NCBI GenBank assembly: GCA_046497275.1
Contig: JAWOFX010000185.1
Span: forward strand, 1 to 11,676
Length of the DNA: 11,676 nt
Direction of reading: 5' to 3'
From: Promethearchaeia archaeon
GTDB taxonomy: Archaea; Asgardarchaeota; Lokiarchaeia; Sigyniarchaeales; SOKP01
Below, piece after piece: positions 332 to 8,924 of this stretch. The notes under the pieces were generated by a model. That model worked only from the letters and a program-made list of their open reading frames with translations, made no database searches and was not told the origin of the DNA. A program made the position numbers and the translations under genes. How positions within the stretch are numbered: the stretch's first letter is position 1; the number at the start of each line of letters is the position of its first letter.

Positions 332-409
332 TTGATGACACCTTGCGGGTGTTAATACTCGATAAGCTCTCGCAATTTATTGCGTTTCAGTTTATTTCAT
401 CGTCATCAA
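332..409 (-). promoter_or_regulatory. Putative SECIS element in the selD 3' UTR
   Basis: Starts immediately after the selD stop. On the - strand: AUGAA (400-396) and CGAG (361-358) form a non-Watson-Crick core. Helix AUAAACU (395-389)/AGCUUAU (368-362) pairs 6 of 7. Unpaired GAAA at 388-385. Apical stem CGCAA/UUGCG with a UAAA loop (384-371). Outer closing stem UUGAUG (409-404)/CAUCAA (337-332). It follows a gene with an in-frame UGA at the catalytic position. Confidence 0.75.
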
Positions 410-1441
410 TTAATATTTTGTTATTTCTAAAAATTCAACATCATCAGATACTCTAACAACACCAGGTTTTTTTTTATCTATAGTTCCAACAATCCAATTT
501 GGCACATTTGAGTTTGAGAGGGTATTTGTGAATTCTTCAATCATTTTATTATCGATAGCTAAGAGCATACCACCAGCGGTTTCATGTGCTCGACATTCTT
601 CAAAGGCGTATCCTAAATCAGCAGATAATTCTCTTGAGAGGTTAATAGAAGGAACCCTCTCAATAATCGCCGAGAGATTTGAATGTTGGAGTAACTCTTT
701 TGTATGACCGGCTAAGCCAAAGCCAGTTATATCTGACATAGCGTGAACAAATGAAAAATCTTTGAATGAATGGATTGCTTTCACTACATCTTGATTGGGT
801 GTGGTCATAACTTTAATCGCTATATCAATGGATTTTTGTAGCTCAGTGTTAGAATATGTTTCTAGAATTTCTGGCATATCCTTCAAAACACGATAAGCAG
901 CCATAACTCCTTGTAGACCAATCGGTTTAGTAATTACTAATTTATCCCCATTTCTAACTCCACTCTTCCTTATAATGATATCTTTATCTACGATACTCGA
1001 GGCTTCACCACCCATTAAAGGCCAATCGCAATATATAGTGTGTCCTCCGACTACTTTTGAGTTAATCTTATTCTCCATAAAGTGTTTGATACCATTAAGA
1101 ATTCCTTCAGCAATTTCAGTGGGTGTATTTGTATTAATTGCTAAAAAGACAAGCATTCCCCCGTTGATTTCAGGTACATTCATAGCAAAGATATCATTTG
1201 TAACATTACATGCCGTAATTTCTCCTTGAATTTCTGGTTCATCAATAATCGGGGTGAATATATCTAAATTTTTCACTAAAACCATATTTGTTTTTAAGAT
1301 TGGAATAACGGCGGAATCTTCAATATCTCTCGCTAAACCTGTTCTCTGAAGAAGATTCTCTAAGCTATCTGGTCCGAGTTTACATGATCATCCGTGAATT
1401 TTTACCTGTGATGTGAGTCTATATTCGTTCTCTTTAGACAT
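410..1441 (-). CDS. selD: Selenophosphate synthetase (selenide, water dikinase), selenocysteine-containing; 343 aa with Sec18
   Basis: ATG at 1441, with GAGGT just upstream, is in frame with the 410..1285 ORF. It reads MSKENEYRLTSQVKIHG-[TGA 1390-1388]-SCKLGPDSLENLL...EDSAVI...KNLDIFTPIIDEP. G-U-x-C-K is the SelD active-site motif. Further SelD/PurM-fold motifs: DIFTPIIDEP, NDIFAM, GGHT, GDKLVITKPIG, DITGFGLAGH, ETAGGMLLA. Confidence 0.93.
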
Positions 1442-1524
1442 CAACCTCAGTCCTTTTTTTTCATTAACTTATATTATTTTATTAAATTAATTTATTTTTA
1501 AAATTTCTAATAGAGGAATTTAAA

Positions 1525-1878
1525 TCAAAAGAGTTGAATCAACTCTCTTTTTTGTGTAACCATTTCCTTCAATTTTTCCAAAATCCTATTTGCTTCTTCT
1601 AAAGATAGGTTAGATTGGGCTATATCGCCATTATCAAGGGACACTGCTCCAAGTATATGAGATCCTAAATAGCATTCTAAACATTTTATAGATGGATCTC
1701 TTGAATATTTAGAAATTGATAAAACTAAATCTTTACCGTATAATAATGATCGATTTTGATTCTCAGGATTAAAGAAATATAGATAATTATAATGTGAATC
1801 ATGAATATCAAATAGGATATAAGATTTATTATTATGTGTGAAAATATAGTGAATTCTTTTAATTTCCGTCTTTTTCAT
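1525..1878 (-). CDS. Hypothetical protein (117 aa) with a CxxC (CLEC) motif
   Basis: ATG-started ORF, co-oriented and 9 nt downstream of the preceding gene, with ordinary globular composition. No family recognised. Confidence 0.65.
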   Translation of the reverse strand: MKKTEIKRIHYIFTHNNKSYILFDIHDSHYNYLYFFNPENQNRSLLYGKDLVLSISKYSRDPSIKCLECYLGSHILGAVSLDNGDIAQSNLSLEEANRILEKLKEMVTQKRELIQLF

Positions 1879-1887
1879 TTTTTTTAT

Positions 1888-2124
1888 TTACAAATTTTTT
1901 AATATTGAGATATAATATTTATTATCATCTACTTGATTTCCCTCAACTCTATATCCGTTTTTGGAAAAAGGCTTTTTAATGTTGTCGAATTGCTCTCTAT
2001 TTGAATAAAATTCTAAAGACTCGCCTTTATTCAATTTTTTCAAATTTATTTTTAATTTTAACATTAAATTCGTACAAGTTAAATCGATATAATTTGGTAT
2101 TTCTTTCATTTCTTTCAGTGTCAT
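1888..2124 (-). CDS. Divergent TusA/SirA-like sulfur-carrier-fold protein (78 aa)
   Basis: Size and pattern ('IDLTC..L.LKLK..LKKLNKGE.LE...N......NI...F...GY.V......NKYYI.I') follow the TusA layout, but CPxP is replaced by CTNL. Confidence 0.55.
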   Translation of the reverse strand: MTLKEMKEIPNYIDLTCTNLMLKLKINLKKLNKGESLEFYSNREQFDNIKKPFSKNGYRVEGNQVDDNKYYISILKNL

Positions 2125-2172
2125 TTTTATATTATTTCAAAAACCTATTATTCATATTTTGTAAATTAATAA

Positions 2173-3420
2173 TTAATAGAAAATGATCCGTTTATGAGTT
2201 ATTGATTGATCTGGTCTAGATAGGATCATTCCTCCTAAGTTATTAATTTTTTCGATAATATTATTTAAATTATTCGCTAAATCTAAATTTCGCATTTTTA
2301 ATGAATCTTCAAAAACATAATAGTTTAAAAATTCCATATCCGAAGTCGCCATAATGATATCTTGGATATTAAATATTTTATTTTCTTCGGTAACTTTATG
2401 TTTAGTTGGTAAACAATAAGCACCATCTTCGATAAACACAAGTTCGGTAGGAATTTCATGGTTTGCACATGCCATGGCAAATGACAATCCTCCAAAAGTC
2501 CATTCCGACCCATATGGGCTATGTGTTATAAATACAATTATAGAAGGTTTACTAATTTTTTTATCAGGAATTTTTTGGACGGGGTCACTAAAAAATTGAA
2601 CAGATCCCCAAGAAGGTGCCAGAATTAAATTTGACTCTTCATATTCATCGATAATTCTATTTAAATTGCAAAACATATAATTTGGAATTACATCATCAGA
2701 TTGAATATATTTTTGGCTTTCTGGTTCTCGAATATGCCCTCGAGCGGTACCACATCGGGAACAAGATAACATTTTGAAATTTAGGTTATTTTTTTTTGCT
2801 TTTTGGTTCAAATAGACTAATTTTTTACCAATGTTCTCAAATTCCGATGGTCTTTGTCCTAAATGTCCTATATGTACTCCATCAAGATAAGTGAAAAATT
2901 TTGGATTTAAGTTATTATCAATCGCACTTTCCAAGAATTTTACAGCATTTACGGAAGTTCTGCTCATGTAAGGTCCTTGAAACTCTAAAAAACCTATTTG
3001 ATTCCCATAATTTTTAGCATGAGTAGCATTAATAAGAGTGTGCCAAAATTCTGATTCTTTTTTTATTTTAAGGTTCCCAAAAGGTATATTTCTGGATATT
3101 TCTTTTTTAGGAAAATATTTTTCACACCTATTAAATTTTAATCCTAATAAGGATAATTCTTCTGAATCCAAATAGCACTGAAAATTATTTTTTGAAATCA
3201 GTTTTAACCAAGATTCTTGATATCTCTTATCAATCAAACTGAAAAGTGCGTCTCCAGTTAGAAAGAATCTTATCTGATCTTTTTCATTAAAACCCGTAGA
3301 ATTCTTTTGATTTAAATTTTCTTCGGTTTCAATTTTATGAAAACATTCAGCCAACCATTCTATCCGTTCCAGTGGGATCTTTTCCATAAAAAGAAATAAT
3401 AATTCCTTTCTCTTTTCCAT
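2173..3420 (-). CDS. Three-domain DsrE/F/H-superfamily fusion (DsrH/TusB-like, DsrE/TusD-like, DsrF/TusC-like), 415 aa
   Basis: Three DsrEFH-fold signatures. N-terminal 'FFLTGDAL...CYLDSEELSLLGL' is TusB-like. Middle 'QGPY...FFTYLDGVH....Q.PSEFENIG...CSRCGTARG' is DsrE/TusD-like. C-terminal 'VFITHSPYGSE...LVFIEDGAY...YYVFEDSLKMRNL' is DsrF/TusC-like. Confidence 0.75.
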   Translation of the reverse strand: MEKRKELLFLFMEKIPLERIEWLAECFHKIETEENLNQKNSTGFNEKDQIRFFLTGDALFSLIDKRYQESWLKLISKNNFQCYLDSEELSLLGLKFNRCEKYFPKKEISRNIPFGNLKIKKESEFWHTLINATHAKNYGNQIGFLEFQGPYMSRTSVNAVKFLESAIDNNLNPKFFTYLDGVHIGHLGQRPSEFENIGKKLVYLNQKAKKNNLNFKMLSCSRCGTARGHIREPESQKYIQSDDVIPNYMFCNLNRIIDEYEESNLILAPSWGSVQFFSDPVQKIPDKKISKPSIIVFITHSPYGSEWTFGGLSFAMACANHEIPTELVFIEDGAYCLPTKHKVTEENKIFNIQDIIMATSDMEFLNYYVFEDSLKMRNLDLANNLNNIIEKINNLGGMILSRPDQSITHKRIIFY

Positions 3421-3454
3421 ATTTAAAAAAAAAATTTAAAAATTTCGTTTATTT

Positions 3455-3682
3455 CTATTGTATTGTTATTTTTAATTCCCACATACCAGGATCGAGTAAT
3501 TTTGATTCAATTTTATGTCCCTTCTTTTTTATATCAGTGGGAATTGTATCATTTGCCGCGGGTGGATGATCAGTTTTAACAACAAGTACATCTCCAGAAC
3601 TTAATTCTTTAACCTTATTTCTTACAGCTAATAAACAATAAGGACATACTTTACCAATAATATCCAACTCATATTCAGTCAT
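3455..3682 (-). CDS. TusA/SirA/YedF(YeeD)-family sulfur/selenium carrier with a CPYC motif
   Basis: 'LDIIGKVCPYC...GDVLVVKTDHPPA...IP......GH......G.WELKI' is a typical TusA fold. ATG at 3682 is preferred over GTG at 3694 because GAGGTG (3697-3692) then serves as the RBS. Confidence 0.85.
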   Translation of the reverse strand: MTEYELDIIGKVCPYCLLAVRNKVKELSSGDVLVVKTDHPPAANDTIPTDIKKKGHKIESKLLDPGMWELKITIQ

Positions 3683-3695
3683 TTTTTTATTCACC

Positions 3696-4196
3696 TCAAG
3701 GCATAATCATTTGAACTAATTGAATTATTACACCATGGAATAGAATCGCACCAACAATAGTTCCTGCTATGAAGAATAGGGATTTAAGGTTACCTTCAGA
3801 TGTCATAACAATCTGTCGTAGTGGACATCCTCCTAATAAGACTCCGATAAATCCCATTCCAAAACCTCCAATTATGGCTAAAACTACATAAGAGAGGTTT
3901 GCAAGTCCTCCAGGAGCTCCAGGGATGGGAGTTAAAGGATCAGCTTGATTTACTACCCAAAAGAAGTTAGGAAACGCAACTGGAACTATTGCCCAAAAAA
4001 TAAAATATCCGATGAAAGCACCGCCTATTAATGCCAAATATCCAAAGAATAATCTAGTATGTTTAAACATAAATAGGTCTCTTAGACCTCCAATTGAGCA
4101 AAATCCTGAACGCTGCGCTAGATATCCAATAATAAAGCCCAATATGAGTGTCATTATAGGAAGTACTAAGGCAGTGCTTGCAATAAGACCACTCAT
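3696..4196 (-). CDS. YeeE/YedE-family membrane transporter, C-terminal half as a separate gene
   Basis: Hydrophobic and Gly-rich, with motifs 'AQRSGFCSIGGLRD' and 'VLLGGCPLRQ...EGN'. These match the second half of selenium-associated YedE proteins as I recall them. Confidence 0.85.
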   Translation of the reverse strand: MSGLIASTALVLPIMTLILGFIIGYLAQRSGFCSIGGLRDLFMFKHTRLFFGYLALIGGAFIGYFIFWAIVPVAFPNFFWVVNQADPLTPIPGAPGGLANLSYVVLAIIGGFGMGFIGVLLGGCPLRQIVMTSEGNLKSLFFIAGTIVGAILFHGVIIQLVQMIMP

Positions 4197-4197
4197 T

Positions 4198-4713
4198 TTA
4201 TATACCCCTCCGTTTCATATAGAATAAAAGGAGAATCACTCCCACTGCTACTCCTCCCGCAATAGAAAAAATCCCTATTAATGCGATAAGATCTCCATAT
4301 GCAAATCTTAACGCTAATCTGTATGGACATGCTCCCACTAATAAGGCAAAATTAATCACCGCGATACCTCCGAGAAAGTATAAAATATAATTCAGAATTG
4401 AACTTTTTTTTAAACGAAATTCCTTTTTTCTCTTAGCAGCAAAATATCCTCCAATCAAAACTCCTACGATTGTTAGGACTGGAGTTGTTGCCGAAAAAGG
4501 AGCAATTCCTAAACTCGTTCCCATAAAAGCGTTTGTTATTGCATTTACCAAATCTCTAGTATGACATGCAACACAGAAACCATATGCTTCTGGTCCACCT
4601 GCGCTAATTAATAATGCTTGTATTAAAGCGGCAAGAAGTCCAATTATGATCCCTAAAAAAGCGGGAATTCTAATAATACTTAACAAACTTTTTTTTTCAT
4701 TCTCGTTTTTCAT
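4198..4713 (-). CDS. YeeE/YedE-family membrane transporter, N-terminal half as a separate gene
   Basis: Hydrophobic, with motifs 'GFCVACHTRD', 'G..IGG..AA...KEFR' and 'GACPYR...R...GDL.AL.G'. These match the first half of the selenium-associated YedE family (TIGR04112-like, from recall). Confidence 0.85.
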   Translation of the reverse strand: MKNENEKKSLLSIIRIPAFLGIIIGLLAALIQALLISAGGPEAYGFCVACHTRDLVNAITNAFMGTSLGIAPFSATTPVLTIVGVLIGGYFAAKRKKEFRLKKSSILNYILYFLGGIAVINFALLVGACPYRLALRFAYGDLIALIGIFSIAGGVAVGVILLLFYMKRRGI

Positions 4714-4765
4714 TTCAGAATCACTTTCTAAATACTTAAAAATTAAGAGAGAGAATTTTAAATTA

Positions 4766-4806
4766 CTTATAAATCTTTTCGATAGTGTTTATCGAAATAA
4801 TCGATA
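4766..4806 (-). promoter_or_regulatory. Putative archaeal promoter (BRE + TATA) for the yedE-tusA-dsr-selD gene run, with upstream TATCGATT motif
   Basis: The - strand reads CGAAAA (4781-4776)-GA-TTTATAAG (4773-4766), about 55 nt upstream of ATG 4713. TATCGATT lies at 4806-4799. Confidence 0.55.
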
Positions 4807-5142
4807 TATTTTTCAAAATAATTAAATTTGAAATAGATTAAAATTAACCTTGATATAGATATAAAAATTATATTTAAAAAGCAAAAATTATCCGAAAACT
4901 AATGAAAAGTAGTAAATTGATCTATTTTGGTTAATTATTTCTGAAGACCAAACGATCAATTAAAATAAATTATGAGATTTACATCATCATGAGTATTATT
5001 CACGAGTTGAGATCTTATTTCTTTATCAAAATTTAAGAAATAAACAAACTTAAAATTTGTTCTGGTTTTTAATTCGTCAATTTGAAAATATTTTGGAAAA
5101 CCATTATCTTTTAGTAATGATCTATTTCTTTAAATTTAGATT

Positions 5143-5183
5143 TATCGATTTATTAAATAAATAATTACGAAAATATTAATATA
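5143..5183 (+). promoter_or_regulatory. Putative archaeal promoter (BRE + TATA) for dsrE-tusA, with upstream TATCGATT motif
   Basis: TATCGATT (5143-5150), 17 nt, CGAAAA (5168-5173), TA, TTAATATA (5176-5183), about 60 nt upstream of ATG 5246. The geometry matches the opposite promoter. Confidence 0.5.
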
Positions 5184-5245
5184 TTCAGAAATATTTTTTT
5201 TATTAACAAGTATAATTTAGAAAAAATCGATTGAGTATTGAACAT

Positions 5246-5605
5246 ATGGCAGAAAAACAAATGATTTTTACAATCGCAATTGGAGATGGTGCGTACACAA
5301 AGGAAAGACCTTACACAATGTTACGGTTTGCCTATACTGCATTATTAACAGGCCATAAGGTTAATATTTTTCTTGTTGAAGACGGAATATTTGTAGGAAA
5401 AAAAAACCAAAATCCGACTACTTATGATAATATTGGCAAATGGTTAAGCGATGTAATTGAGGAAGGAGCAAATGTCAAATCATGTGGAGTGTGTATGAAA
5501 GCACGAGGAATGCCTGATGATGAACTAATGCAAGGAATTGAAAAAACAACCATGAATGGTTTTTTGGAAATGTGCGAAGAGGCAGATAAAATACTTTTCA
5601 GTTAA
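5246..5605 (+). CDS. DsrE/TusD-family sulfur-relay protein (119 aa)
   Basis: 'TIAIGDGAY...R...LRFA......GHKVNIFLVEDGI...KKNQNP...NIG..L......G..VKSCGVCMKARG' is a classic DsrE with CxxCxxARG. ATG 5246 is preferred over TTG 5231. Confidence 0.87.
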   Translation: MAEKQMIFTIAIGDGAYTKERPYTMLRFAYTALLTGHKVNIFLVEDGIFVGKKNQNPTTYDNIGKWLSDVIEEGANVKSCGVCMKARGMPDDELMQGIEKTTMNGFLEMCEEADKILFS

Positions 5606-5624
5606 ATAAATGGGTGTTTAAAAA

Positions 5625-5849
5625 ATGAGTAAGACAATATTAAAATGTGAAGGAATGGTCTGTCCTATGCCCGTTGCGAAGACTAAGCGCAAGTTGCGTG
5701 AATTAAATTCGGGAGATATACTTGAAATCACCGGAGATTTTGCTGAGGCATCTGAAAATATAAAACGATTTGTGGAGAAACAAGGGCATAAAGTCTTAGA
5801 ACATAAGATTGAGGGAGAGAATTATCACCTAAAAGTGAAAAAAGCATAA
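5625..5849 (+). CDS. tusA: TusA-family sulfurtransferase (74 aa)
   Basis: Canonical 'L.CEGMVCPMPV.KTKRKL..L.SGDILEITGD..EA.ENI.RF..KQGH.V' including the CPxP motif. Confidence 0.88.
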   Translation: MSKTILKCEGMVCPMPVAKTKRKLRELNSGDILEITGDFAEASENIKRFVEKQGHKVLEHKIEGENYHLKVKKA

Positions 5850-5963: not shown

Positions 5964-8924
5964 TTATGAGAGAAGTAAATCAATCTTTTTGGTTAATCTC
6001 TTATGAAGATCAAAAGGTCCTTTGTAATGAATTATCAATCCAATTTCATCATGGGTATTACTAGCAAGATTTTTTTTTATATCTTTATCAATATGTAAAA
6101 GATATTTAAATTTAAAGTTATTTCCTGTTTTTAACTCAGAGACTTGAAAATATCTGGGAAAACTTTTATCTTTTAATATTTCAATATATTCTGGAATACG
6201 GAGAGTGATTTGCAAATCTTTAAAATCATAATTTGAAGGATTATTCAACCTTAGATTAATTTCCAATTGATTAATCATAGATTTAATATTTTTAAATACT
6301 TTAATTTCTTTAATATCACCTATATCTGATTGCAATTTAGCGGAATAAATTGAATCATCAATTATTTTGGCATCTAATTTCTTTTTATTAATGTATGTTA
6401 ATGTTCGTTCCTTTATTTGTGAATTGTTAAGTCCCATATAATTTGAGAGAAGATCAAAATTGATAGGATTCACAATTTTAAGATAATGGTTTATTTGTTT
6501 AAGATATAGTTTATCTCTACCTTTCTTGACGAATTTCTTTGACTTAAGAATTAATAACTCCTTAGAAGTGTTCCATTTCTCCATAAAAGGTTTAATATAT
6601 AAATCAAATCCATTTTGACCTTTCTTAAAAATTTCGTCCTTTTCTATGATACTTTCAATTTGTTGCTCCGTATCGTCGATAAAAGAATTAATCTGATTTG
6701 AATGAGTTTCAATAAGTTTCTTAGCTTCCTCAAATCCACCCTTTTTTATGAGTAAATCTAACTTTGACTCTAACTTATCAAAATTTTTATTAAATTTTTT
6801 GATCCCTTCAATTCCGTATGAAATAATTGATTGGATATGACCTTGAACGATTTGAAATGTTAATTCTTCACTTAATCCATCGATCTCATCATATTTTGTA
6901 ATTTGTTCTGATAAATCAACTGCAGATAAATCGCTTATTATCTTTTGTTTCATATCTTTAATTTCTCGATCTAAATTGTTTAAAAATATTTGAATTTCTA
7001 TTTTAACTGCCACCCAGCTGCTTAATAGTTCTTTAAATATGTCATCAAACTCAACATTATTGATCAACATTTCCCGGATATCTACATCTAATTTAAATAA
7101 ATTCCTTCGGAGAAGGGAAATGTAATTAAAATTCTCATGAAACGAGGATTCTGGATACCATTCTATATTTTCAATATTCTCTTTTTTGACGATATTCTCA
7201 TCTAATGATTTGCGCTTTATATAATCAAATTGGGCTTTAAGGATATCAATTCTGTCCATTAAAATATTTATTTTTATTTGAAGATTGGATTTATATTCTT
7301 GTTTTTTCTCCTCGCAAATATTTGATATAAATCCTTTTATAATACTTAACTCATCAATGATCTGAATCTTAGTTTCTTCCCATTCTTCAATTAAATCAAA
7401 AGCTAATCTTTTATATTCAAACCGATTTATTTCCTTATGAAATTCTTGAATATCTTTGATTATATCGTCATACATTTGGTTTAATTGTATTTCTGTAGTA
7501 GTAAATTTGAAACTCTTAATGTATGAATTAAGTTTCCGCCTGAATTCAACCGGAATCTTTTGAAATTCAAGAATTTTGTCCTCAAAATTAGAAAGTTGTT
7601 TGTTTATTTTCTCGATATATTCCTCAATATGAGGATATTTATCATTAATTTTCTCTAATGTGTAAATGATTTCCTTCCTAATTTCCAAGTCATTTTCTTG
7701 ATCTAATTTATTATTCAATTCAATAGTTATCCAAAGAGCCATTTTTCTACTTTCTAATATGAGACAAATATTTTGAAGAAGTTGTATAGTTTTTTTACGC
7801 TTTCTCCAATATTTTGATTCCAATTTATATACTATTCTTGTTATCTCATTCTCTATTTCAACTTGATATTCATCAAAGAGACGTCTAAAAACTAATTCAA
7901 TAGTCGCTCTAACATTTTCAGAAGGATTTTCTAATTCTTCAAATAAGTAAGGAAAAATAAAATCAATATGATTTTGAGATATTTGATAAAGAGCATTGCT
8001 CAAGGAATTTTTAAATATATTATCGCTTGATTCTGAAATAGAATGTATTAAATTGGCCCATATTTGTTCAAAATTATTTTTTGATATATTAATTAAAGCG
8101 TCAATTACTTTTACTTGAATTCGAAAGTTCTTATTTTTCAAAAATTTAATGATCTTGGGAATAAATGGAATTATTTCTGAAGATTTTTCTTTCCCAATTT
8201 CTCCAAAGAGCCAGAATACTAGTTCTTTCACCCTGGACTCTTCATTGTAAAGGAGATTTAACAAAATATAGAATATCTTTTCCTTTGAAAGAAAGTAATT
8301 TCCAAGAATCCTGAGAAGTTCAGCAGAAGCCCTTGCCACATCATCATCGTTATCTCTTAAATTGATAATAACCATAGATAATAATGGTTCAATTTCTTTA
8401 ATTTTGGTATAATCTTGATTTATAATGTCTATTGTAGTATTTATTACGGATAATTTTACTTTCCAATCATTATCCATTAATTTTTCGGTATATTCGTTTA
8501 GTATCTCTTGTAAAATTTGTGAATCTATATGAAGGGACAAAATTAGATTTCCAATAATCTTAACTGCCAGTCTTCGTACAGGTGGATCGCTATCGAATAA
8601 TCGAGATCTAATATCAGTTAAGTACTCTATTAATAAATTCGGTCTATATATTGCAATTTGATAGATAATCTCAAGAGCTATTAAACGAATCCAAGAATCT
8701 TGATCATTAATAAGAGGTGATACATTTTTAATTGCTTTTAGCGATATCTTTGGAGATTTATCGCAGATTATATTCAGAAGATTAAGACAGTTTAAAAGGA
8801 TTTCTTTATCATCACTGGATGAAAATACCTCTATCGCCTCAAATATCTCATCTGTGGCCTTATCATACTTTCCTTCTAAAATATATCCTTCAATGTCTTT
8901 AATATCCAAATTTAAAATCCGCAA
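5964..8924 (-). CDS. Large HEAT-repeat (alpha-solenoid) protein with helical middle, C-terminal winged-helix/PCI-like segment and beta-sandwich domain (986 aa)
   Basis: About 10 HEAT-like repeats in the first ~430 aa ('LINDQDSWIRLIALE', 'LFDSDPPVRRLAVK', 'LMDNDWKVK', 'LRDNDDDVARASAE', 'LENPSENVRAT'). The middle is charged and helical. The C-terminus has alternating beta-strand patterns ('LEINLRLNNPSNYDFKDLQITLRIP'). The start codon is TTG and uncertain; an in-frame TAA just upstream rules out a longer extension. Confidence 0.8.
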   Translation of the reverse strand: MRILNLDIKDIEGYILEGKYDKATDEIFEAIEVFSSSDDKEILLNCLNLLNIICDKSPKISLKAIKNVSPLINDQDSWIRLIALEIIYQIAIYRPNLLIEYLTDIRSRLFDSDPPVRRLAVKIIGNLILSLHIDSQILQEILNEYTEKLMDNDWKVKLSVINTTIDIINQDYTKIKEIEPLLSMVIINLRDNDDDVARASAELLRILGNYFLSKEKIFYILLNLLYNEESRVKELVFWLFGEIGKEKSSEIIPFIPKIIKFLKNKNFRIQVKVIDALINISKNNFEQIWANLIHSISESSDNIFKNSLSNALYQISQNHIDFIFPYLFEELENPSENVRATIELVFRRLFDEYQVEIENEITRIVYKLESKYWRKRKKTIQLLQNICLILESRKMALWITIELNNKLDQENDLEIRKEIIYTLEKINDKYPHIEEYIEKINKQLSNFEDKILEFQKIPVEFRRKLNSYIKSFKFTTTEIQLNQMYDDIIKDIQEFHKEINRFEYKRLAFDLIEEWEETKIQIIDELSIIKGFISNICEEKKQEYKSNLQIKINILMDRIDILKAQFDYIKRKSLDENIVKKENIENIEWYPESSFHENFNYISLLRRNLFKLDVDIREMLINNVEFDDIFKELLSSWVAVKIEIQIFLNNLDREIKDMKQKIISDLSAVDLSEQITKYDEIDGLSEELTFQIVQGHIQSIISYGIEGIKKFNKNFDKLESKLDLLIKKGGFEEAKKLIETHSNQINSFIDDTEQQIESIIEKDEIFKKGQNGFDLYIKPFMEKWNTSKELLILKSKKFVKKGRDKLYLKQINHYLKIVNPINFDLLSNYMGLNNSQIKERTLTYINKKKLDAKIIDDSIYSAKLQSDIGDIKEIKVFKNIKSMINQLEINLRLNNPSNYDFKDLQITLRIPEYIEILKDKSFPRYFQVSELKTGNNFKFKYLLHIDKDIKKNLASNTHDEIGLIIHYKGPFDLHKRLTKKIDLLLS

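Follow-up and report, generated by a model that had tools for sequence, protein, structure and literature searches.

A split YedE, TusA and DsrE-family gene module upstream of a selenocysteine-type selD in an Asgard archaeon

Gene content and cysteine motifs of the locus

We analyzed the genes that lead into selD, the gene for selenophosphate synthetase, on contig JAWOFX010000185.1 of a Promethearchaeia archaeon (assembly GCA_046497275.1). The window analyzed is the entire 11.7-kb contig (11,676 nucleotides), which belongs to a genome of 3.85 Mb with an estimated completeness of 98.9%, and the loci closest to its module carry Promethearchaeota names. A string of seven co-oriented genes was found on the minus strand, in the order yedE-N, yedE-C, TusA1, a fused DsrE-family gene, TusL2, Orph117 and selD, with gaps of 1, 1, 34, 48, 9 and 83 nt between consecutive genes, and DsrE124 followed by TusA3 lies divergently on the plus strand across a spacer of 517 bp, as shown in Table 1. 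A first-pass annotation of this DNA had described six tightly spaced genes leading into selD, a divergent DsrE-TusA pair, and candidate carrier cysteines in nearly every protein. All nine genes are present as described, and the cysteines are real and invariant across the module loci. The gene order is far beyond chance, as it recurs in 51 loci of other species-level genomes. From the sequence, the seven minus-strand genes are best explained as one transcription unit, which would have a TATA box under an operator of the LysR-type transcriptional regulator (LTTR) kind and would end in selD with a selenocysteine insertion sequence (SECIS) in its 3′ untranslated region (3′UTR).

Table 1. Genes and sequence elements of the locus, with positions in the window
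Feature	Position	Strand	Description
yedE-N	4713-4198	minus	171 aa, N-terminal half of a split YedE-type membrane transporter; motifs FCVAC and GACPYR
yedE-C	4196-3696	minus	166 aa, C-terminal half of the split YedE; 1 nt past yedE-N
TusA1	3694-3455	minus	79 aa, YedF/YeeD-like TusA; CPYC motif
Fused DsrE-family protein	3420-2173	minus	415 aa, single chain with three DsrE-fold domains
TusL2	2124-1888	minus	78 aa, TusA-fold; one invariant Cys (C17) in a CTNL context, not CPxP
Orph117	1878-1525	minus	117 aa, beta-rich, no known family; CLEC motif (C66, C69)
selD	1441-410	minus	selenophosphate synthetase, 343 aa; selenocysteine at codon 18
SECIS-like element	333..409	minus	selD 3′UTR
Candidate operator ATCGA-N5-TCGAT	4791..4805		palindrome, no strand
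TATA-like TTTATAA	4773-4767		18 nt downstream of the palindrome
DsrE124	5231-5605	plus	124 aa, single-domain DsrE; CGVC motif
TusA3	5625-5849	plus	74 aa, canonical CPxP TusA; CPMP motif

The two membrane genes match Pfam PF04143, yedE-N at 3e-7 and yedE-C at 2e-8. For both halves the selenium-type model TIGR04112 (seleno_YedE) was the best YedE-type NCBIfam model, with yedE-N scoring 63.6 bits over profile positions 3-133 against 18 bits on the TsuA model, and yedE-C scoring 74.8 bits (best stretch at profile positions 186-238, or 186-307 in the genome search) against 26 bits. YedE of the TIGR04112 type co-occurs with SelD, and in archaea it is split into two neighbouring genes with 4-5 transmembrane helices each (Lin et al. 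2015, PMC5322559). The same split is seen here, the halves being adjacent open reading frames that each match one half of the model. Cysteines C47, C50 and C129 of YedE-N are invariant in 49 loci, and C33 and C124 of YedE-C in 50 loci.

Three proteins of the window, namely TusA1, TusL2 and TusA3, pass the Pfam TusA threshold. TusA1 matches this family at 4e-14 (53 bits), with the E. coli-type YedF model NF008242 as its best NCBIfam match (43 bits), and its true start is probably the ATG at 3682, because its homologues begin there. Its C17 is invariant, and C20 is present in all loci but one. TusL2 scores 32 bits on Pfam TusA (cut-off 28.6), having kept the motif cysteine and lost the proline, and among the 51 complete module loci it was found after the fused protein in 50, L010 being the one with no match. 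TusA1 was obtained from 15 Asgard and three Methanoregula loci and is missing from the four-gene form of the module in methanogens, and Orph117, with C66 and C69 invariant, was obtained from 12 Asgard and three Methanoregula loci (L020, L022 and L046).

The structure of Orph117 was modelled with a mean predicted local distance difference test (pLDDT) score of 93. No Pfam or NCBIfam family matched the protein, the ESM Atlas gave no usable match, and the best hit of a structural search of the whole PDB, at Z 5.4, is at noise level; clusters of the AlphaFold DB gave just two uncharacterised proteins, with template-modelling (TM) scores of 0.62-0.67. Since TusA1 and Orph117 have an identical phyletic pattern, they were modelled as a pair. 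The predicted complex reached an ipSAE interface score of 0.66 against 0.02 for the best of three controls, and in the calibration of this score 58 of 80 solved complexes attained the mark, as did 2 of 110 mismatched pairs. Agreement in contacts between the runs is at least 94%, the partner pLDDT is at least 87, and the predicted interface joins TusA1 residues 14-19 and 21-23 to Orph117 residues 66 and 68-73, which comprise both CxxC motifs. TusA1 is thus predicted to dock on Orph117 motif to motif, the scores being model confidence and not a measurement.

The fused protein passes Pfam DsrE, and its AlphaFold model has a pLDDT of 84 and a predicted TM score of 0.87. Its domains follow the order DsrH-like, DsrE/TusD-like with an invariant CSRC, and DsrF/TusC-like. 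Residues 139-269 matched YchN, DsrE and TusD at Z 14.7-15.8 in a structure search, residues 294-387 matched TIGR03010 (TusC) at 6e-7, and Foldseek with the protein returned the DsrH chain 2hy5_C at a TM score of 0.84 by target, together with the DsrF chain. Residues 1-130 may be called DsrH-like from fold and position alone: a profile search of this module against PDB sequences was empty, Pfam DsrH was matched by just one of 16 members, and no cysteine of the module is invariant across the loci aligned. The C220/C223 pair is invariant in 51 loci and lies in a DsrE-type loop, ACSRCGTARG. On the TusD, TusC and TusB equivalog models the protein scores 22-29 bits, below the cut-offs of 89-94. It resembles the TusBCD and DsrEFH heterohexamers (PDB 2D1P and 2HY5) in having three paralogous DsrE-fold modules, a cysteine loop in the DsrE/TusD-like module and an adjoining TusA-fold gene, but differs from them in being one chain in the order H-E-F, with a CxxC site in place of a single cysteine and an H-like module that holds no conserved cysteine. 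The module here also has no DsrC/TusE partner, and the fused gene is coupled to a membrane transporter. Many Asgard copies have extra, lineage-specific cysteines, C251 and C318.

Read from the ATG at 1441, selD contains a single in-frame TGA (codon 18, 1390-1388) within the motif HG-U-S-C-K. The protein belongs to the SelD family, with 179.8 bits on TIGR00476 (cut-off 125) and 268 bits on NF010705. Most of the Asgard selD matches, among those listed, likewise hold one in-frame TGA, and the genome of the window encodes SepSecS. The element in the selD 3′UTR carries an AUGA...GA core, a helix II, an AAA internal loop and a mini-stem and is type II-like, and the consensus structure across eight loci contains 20 pairs, nine of them with compensatory changes. 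An Rfam scan of the window recovered no SECIS and no other family, its sole match being a chance long non-coding RNA. Type II eSECIS-like elements have been reported for Asgard selD (PMC11227280), and the element of the window agrees with them; the same paper on the Asgard selenoproteome makes no mention of YedE, TusA or DsrE.

Variation in selD itself was also observed. Many genomes of the family of the window harbor two genes for selenocysteine (Sec)-type SelD, in tandem or a few kb apart (L063, L067, L068, L071-L073, L078, L083, L084, L087 and L089), and these paired copies show 57-62% and 65-70% identity to SelD of the window. In another family, f9 (G236:C12:110681-111607, G131:C8:32609-33535 and eight more), a second SelD-like region lies in a TGA-free frame of 532-782 aa, mostly 743-782 aa, and scores about 400 bits on TIGR00476; it is apparently a fusion form of SelD that accompanies the Sec-type gene.

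Distribution of the module, candidate operator and split YedF-like pair

A pattern scan of one genome per prokaryotic species returned 52 loci, and in 51 of them the order is yedE-N, yedE-C, TusA1, fused protein, TusL2, Orph117 and selD, with TusA1, Orph117 and selD being optional. About 17 of the loci are from Asgard archaea, usually in the six-gene form. The module lies directly upstream of selD and in the same direction in the window and in L008, L009, L012, L013, L014 and L016, whilst in L038 a Sec-type selD stands divergently upstream of the module, and L059 retains a fused-gene remnant of 42 residues and an intact TusL2 ahead of selD. Counting this remnant, the module abuts selD in nine species-level loci and in two arrangements, and on the tree of the fused protein the selD-adjacent loci likewise represent at least two separate arrangements. 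Five module-bearing Asgard genomes in which selD is not adjacent have a TGA-containing selD match elsewhere, four of which pass the cut-off and one of which is partial at a contig end. Every Asgard module genome has a selD match except G165, which is 90% complete and whose module contig stops immediately past the orphan gene.

We also surveyed 301 Asgard genomes, sampled evenly. In this sample, the module genomes are confined to the family of the window (f1) and its sister family (f2), and yedE-C was found in the same genomes as the fused protein, plus one pseudogene. Decayed copies were located at L059:10001-11567 and G030:C26:33129-34494, where a fused-gene fragment of 42-47 residues and an intact TusA-like gene precede selD, and at G282:C219:1005-1429, where yedE-C contains three stop codons. 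The module is best seen as an accessory that few Sec users have, and it shows signs of having been lost more than once.

The DNA upstream of yedE-N was aligned for five loci, and little is conserved in it besides the palindrome ATCGA-N5-TCGAT and the TATA-like box 18 nt downstream. The palindrome has the form ATC-N9-GAT, which we take to be the classical LTTR box bound by LysR-type regulators. In the window it is a sole match, 85 nt upstream of the yedE-N start. The genome of the window contains five exact sites against 3.6 expected, the yedE site alone being clearly intergenic, and the genome-wide scan defined no wider regulon there. Across 1.84 Mb of fetched loci, 17 exact sites were found, 13 of them upstream of yedE-N, selD or dsrE/lysR at a distance of no more than 350 nt. 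When at most one mismatch is allowed, and bearing in mind that the loci are related and the counts are not independent events, the palindrome is found 64-100 nt upstream of yedE-N in eight of the 10 module-clade loci of family f1, and never upstream of selD there; it lies 81-210 nt upstream of selD in 13 of 27 loci of the same family that have no module, and within the dsrE-lysR spacer in two of seven. It is missing at the corresponding positions in 35 methanogen loci, four sister-family loci and 33 selD loci of other families. Because the operator position shifts from selD to yedE-N where the module is present, the simplest reading of these sequences has the module lying between the operator of selD and selD itself, in one operon with that gene.

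Genes for LysR-type regulators were found beside several of these loci. In the sister family (Lokiarchaeum ossiferum, Harpocratesius and two others) a LysR gene adjoins yedE-N, and the two such LysR proteins that were scanned have NF040786 as their best NCBIfam model, at 161-162 bits with the next best at 107. Three scanned LysR proteins from beside dsrE-tusA score 214-235 bits on the same model. All the Asgard LysR neighbours remain under its cut-off of 250, yet it is their best model by a wide margin. Like HrsM, the LysR_Se regulator of Methanococcus, the Asgard LysR proteins beside dsrE-tusA or yedE match this model best, and the palindrome shared among Asgard loci has the form of an LTTR box; unlike HrsM, their putative targets are the selenium acquisition genes themselves, and the genome of the window has no detected LysR.

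The divergent pair of the window belongs to a wider Asgard unit. DsrE124 matches Pfam DsrE at 7e-21, with its CxxC invariant in 23 orthologues, and TusA3 matches Pfam TusA at 1e-22 (80 bits), with an invariant CPxP. The best NCBIfam match of TusA3 is the N-terminal domain of TIGR03527 (selenium_YedF), at 46 bits and 4e-12, and DsrE124 scores 13 bits on this model; neither reaches its cut-off of 110 bits, and the two domains are encoded by two genes in the order dsrE then tusA, not by one chain. This order was observed in 19 of 22 loci from six Asgard families, with a LysR gene alongside the pair in 14 of these loci, and in genus g4 of the family of the window it extends to lysR, dsrE, tusA and selD (L077:6806-9528 and L082:5279-7999). 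Further loci of the lysR-dsrE-tusA unit are L123-L141. Of the eight Asgard families with selD, six or seven yielded the pair; the 22 without selD yielded none. Weak DsrE124 matches in selD-lacking families were considered as orthologues and rejected, being solitary DsrE genes with neither TusA nor LysR neighbours, and those in the selD-bearing family f9 are also solitary DsrE genes.

The first-pass annotation had included the divergent pair in the same system as the six genes. The pair is indeed a widespread unit of selD-bearing Asgard families, but it adjoins the module in the window alone, and not in a same-genus relative or in the other module loci; in that relative it lies beside LysR on another contig, with flanks that map to other contigs of the genome of the window. 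YedF is described as a SirA and a DsrE domain with a CGXC motif and was reported absent from archaea (PMC5322559). The CxxC of DsrE and the CPxP of TusA are the two defining motifs of YedF, and DsrE124-TusA3 is best explained as the archaeal split counterpart of bacterial YedF, within the same selenium regulon. A LysR remnant was sought in the 517-bp divergent spacer and none was found. A third TusA-DsrE pair of the genome was located at G000:C136:64282-64868.

Selenium delivery weighed against sulfur, protective and redox roles

The best-supported account is that a chalcogen import-relay module was recruited into the selD operon and regulon in this lineage, beside the split YedF-like pair. 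We give about an even chance to the narrower claim that the role of the module here is the delivery of selenium to SelD. Several findings weigh against that claim. The two YedE halves together reach about 138 bits, below the TIGR04112 cut-off of 200, as does each half. No LysR gene was detected in the 98.9%-complete genome of the window, by profile search with NF040786 or by tblastn. In the 301-genome sample the module is present in about 10 genomes (full-length fused protein in nine) against 153 with selD above cut-off, and decayed module copies exist (G030/L059 and G282). Because it is rare among selD-bearing Asgard genomes and occurs in decayed copies, the module is dispensable for Sec synthesis.

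Further contrary evidence comes from methanogens. A total of 35 loci of Methanoregulaceae type (Methanolinea and Methanoregula) hold the core of yedE-N, yedE-C, fused protein and TusL2, most of them the four-gene core alone and three Methanoregula loci the six-gene form with TusA1 and Orph117, and no selD lies near the module in any of the 35. The fused-protein tree unites 31 methanogen sequences in a single well-supported clade and places the three six-gene Methanoregula sequences near the Asgard ones. The fused protein was found in 62 of 121 sampled Methanoregulaceae genomes, all 62 lacking selD; the one genome of the sample in which selD was detected has no module. The six-gene Methanoregula genome L020 was also searched and contains no selD. 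That a cluster common in genomes without selD would count against a selenium role had been stated beforehand in the first-pass annotation, and such occurrence was found not just for the core of four genes but also for the form with all six. The core is therefore not selenium-specific by nature and is best explained as a general chalcogen import-relay device. The same annotation had asked whether the genes track the Sec trait across archaea: Asgard module genomes, bar G165, have a selD match, often an adjacent one, but the module is rare among Sec-using Asgard archaea and common in Methanoregulaceae that have no selD. Weak selD-model matches in Methanoregulaceae were considered as divergent SelD and rejected, as they are HypE at 415 bits. 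The sole selD-bearing genome of this sample carries a selD with no in-frame TGA (G371:C1:2475052-2475834).

These methanogen genomes bear directly on a sulfur role, which we regard as unlikely for the window though not negligible, and in which the module would import thiosulfate or zero-valent sulfur and relay persulfide for assimilation or thiolation, like TsuA/TsuB or YedE1E2, with the selD adjacency reflecting shared regulation or history. Half of the sampled Methanoregulaceae carry the core with no selD, as this role would predict, and TusA and DsrEFH/TusBCD are sulfur relays. Characterised YeeE/YedE relatives move thiosulfate, as TsuA does with TsuB (PMC11582611), or, as half-size two-gene forms, import zero-valent sulfur (PMC11582611, PMC10812762). 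In M. maripaludis, selenium depletion raised yedE by 5.3 log2 and a TusA/TusD pair by 4.5 log2, and deletion of yedE gave no clear selenium phenotype (PMC11097638), the latter again weighing against selenium delivery. Against the sulfur role stands a second YeeE of the same genome, unsplit and 343 aa long, on contig C143, which scores 264 bits on the TsuA model NF052577 against 47 bits on TIGR04112 and is flanked by its own TusA (CPYP), DsrE (CNLC) and DsrF-like protein (L003:117-2134, minus). Judged by these genes, a sulfur-type system exists in the genome apart from the module of the window, which argues against the alternative offered in the first-pass annotation, a thiosulfate or sulfur relay that merely neighbours selD. 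The YedE halves of the window are moreover far closer to the selenium-type model than to TsuA, the selD operator precedes the module in the family of the window, a selenium-type LysR flanks it in the sister family, and the adjacency to selD arose in at least two arrangements.

The locus resembles TsuA/TsuB (YeeE/YeeD) in placing a channel of the YeeE/YedE family with conserved cysteines beside a small TusA-like gene, such a protein being essential for thiosulfate uptake in E. coli (PMC11582611). It differs in that the channel is split and carries an additional CxxC in its N-terminal half; the halves score a weak 18 and 26 bits against the TsuA models, for which C143 holds a better candidate. 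The half-size zero-valent sulfur transporters YedE1E2/PmpAB likewise consist of two adjacent half-genes, presumed to form a heterodimer, but their halves are about 130 aa with one conserved cysteine each (PMC11582611), whereas those of the window are 166-171 aa, have three and two invariant cysteines, and align to the selenium-type full-length model.

The neighbours of the methanogen module are also contrary to selenium delivery as the general function. They include an ArsR-family regulator, an ArsP permease, a low-molecular-weight ArsC-type phosphatase, DGC, DUF2703, DsbD_2 and C_GCAxxG_C_C, and this context, as read from the gene content, points to metalloid or thiol stress and not to selenium use. 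A protective function, in which the module would sequester or export reactive selenium, sulfane sulfur or thiol-reactive metalloids and the link to selD would be a common response to selenium load, draws on this ars and thiol-redox neighbourhood, on an ArsR-family gene that in L. ossiferum lies downstream of the module at a distance of about 1 kb (with two unassigned genes between), on the good binding of selenium and metalloids by CxxC dithiols, and on the exporter role for YedE raised by Lin et al. (PMC5322559). We consider it improbable for the window, as the genes of the Asgard family share operator and orientation with selD, which consumes selenide and does not remove it, no ars genes were found near the module in the fetched Asgard loci, and yedE of Methanococcus is induced by selenium depletion and not by excess (PMC11097638). 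Such an ars/thiol-gene neighbourhood was observed at L004/L005:2759-9425, in Methanolinea and relatives.

The cysteine motifs might also be read as a thiol-disulfide system, in which the CxxC proteins (TusA1, Orph117, the fused protein and DsrE124) would reduce imported selenite or keep the U-x-C site of SelD in its reduced state, with no element being carried. All soluble members bar TusL2 and TusA3 do have a CxxC pair in place of the single cysteine of classical persulfide carriers, selenoproteins are known that form a DsrE-like family with UxxC (PMC13188914), and the CGXC of YedF was read as a redox motif by Lin et al. (PMC5322559). This reading seems to us the least probable of those considered, since the strict pairing with a YedE channel and with single-cysteine TusA-fold proteins fits cargo transfer, and methanogens have the proteins without SelD.

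Proposed route to SelD and related systems

If the module serves selenium delivery in this lineage, the core would have been inserted between the selD operator and selD, and the following route can be proposed. The YedE halves would form a heterodimeric channel with five invariant cysteines that takes up a low-valent chalcogen, here most likely selenium. In one branch the element would pass to TusA1 (CPYC), docking on Orph117 (CLEC), and in the other TusL2 would work with the fused DsrH/E/F-like protein (CSRC), as TusA does with TusBCD. The bound selenium would then be handed to the U-x-C site of SelD. We infer the substrate, the direction of transport, the order of transfer and the delivery to SelD, and any discrimination of selenium against sulfur by the module is pure inference. 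The complete import-relay chain to SelD claimed in the first-pass annotation is borne out as far as the link to selD goes, by conserved synteny, the shared candidate operator and the resemblance of YedE, LysR and the DsrE-TusA pair to selenium-type genes; as a dedicated selenium system it is not supported in the form claimed.

A broader version of this route is held more tentatively, at somewhat less than an even chance. Lokiarchaeia-type archaea might possess a dedicated, LysR_Se-controlled selenium pathway that runs from split YedE through CxxC carriers to Sec-type SelD, with Orph117 as a new carrier fold docking TusA1 and a single-chain DsrH/E/F relay. The same hardware would serve sulfur or metalloids in Methanoregulaceae, specificity being set by context or by the extra C251 and C318.

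The nearest described system comprises the YedE, YedF and LysR_Se genes (PMC5322559; TIGR04112, TIGR03527 and NF040786). In common with it, a YedE-type transporter in a two-gene split lies beside selD, TusA (CPxP) and DsrE (CGxC) represent both domains of YedF, and a selenium-type LysR and an LTTR box are associated. The differences are that the YedF domains are separate genes here in the reverse order, that the cut-offs of the hidden Markov models are not reached, that the module adds a three-domain fused DsrE protein, a proline-less TusA-like protein and a CxxC protein of unknown fold, and that the module core occurs also without SelD, in methanogens. A literature search on DsrE, TusA and selenophosphate together found no description of the module. 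The novelty suggested for the gene combination accordingly holds for the fused DsrH/E/F-like protein, the TusA-like protein, the orphan and the operator, but not for the YedE-SelD association or the archaeal YedE split, which are already published (PMC5322559).

The route of selenium to selenophosphate synthetase is poorly defined in archaea, and no selenium-specific transporter is known in any organism (PMC11097638). The locus gives a short list of testable candidates, all of them small and expressible, namely the two YedE halves, TusA1, Orph117, TusL2, the fused DsrE protein and the DsrE-TusA pair, together with the candidate operator. Methanogens that carry the same module and no SelD provide a natural comparison set, and the presence of the module with a selenium-type LysR in the genome of Lokiarchaeum ossiferum Loki-B35 means that an experimental test may be possible in an Asgard culture or through transfer to Methanococcus. 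The results also correct the literature on two points, namely that archaea lack YedF-like functions and that only selenium users have a YedE of the selenium type.

Beyond the divergent pair, positions 5964-8924 of the window (minus strand) encode a repeat-rich protein of 986 aa, which six related loci conserve at an equivalent position, about 4.4 kb upstream of the fused gene.

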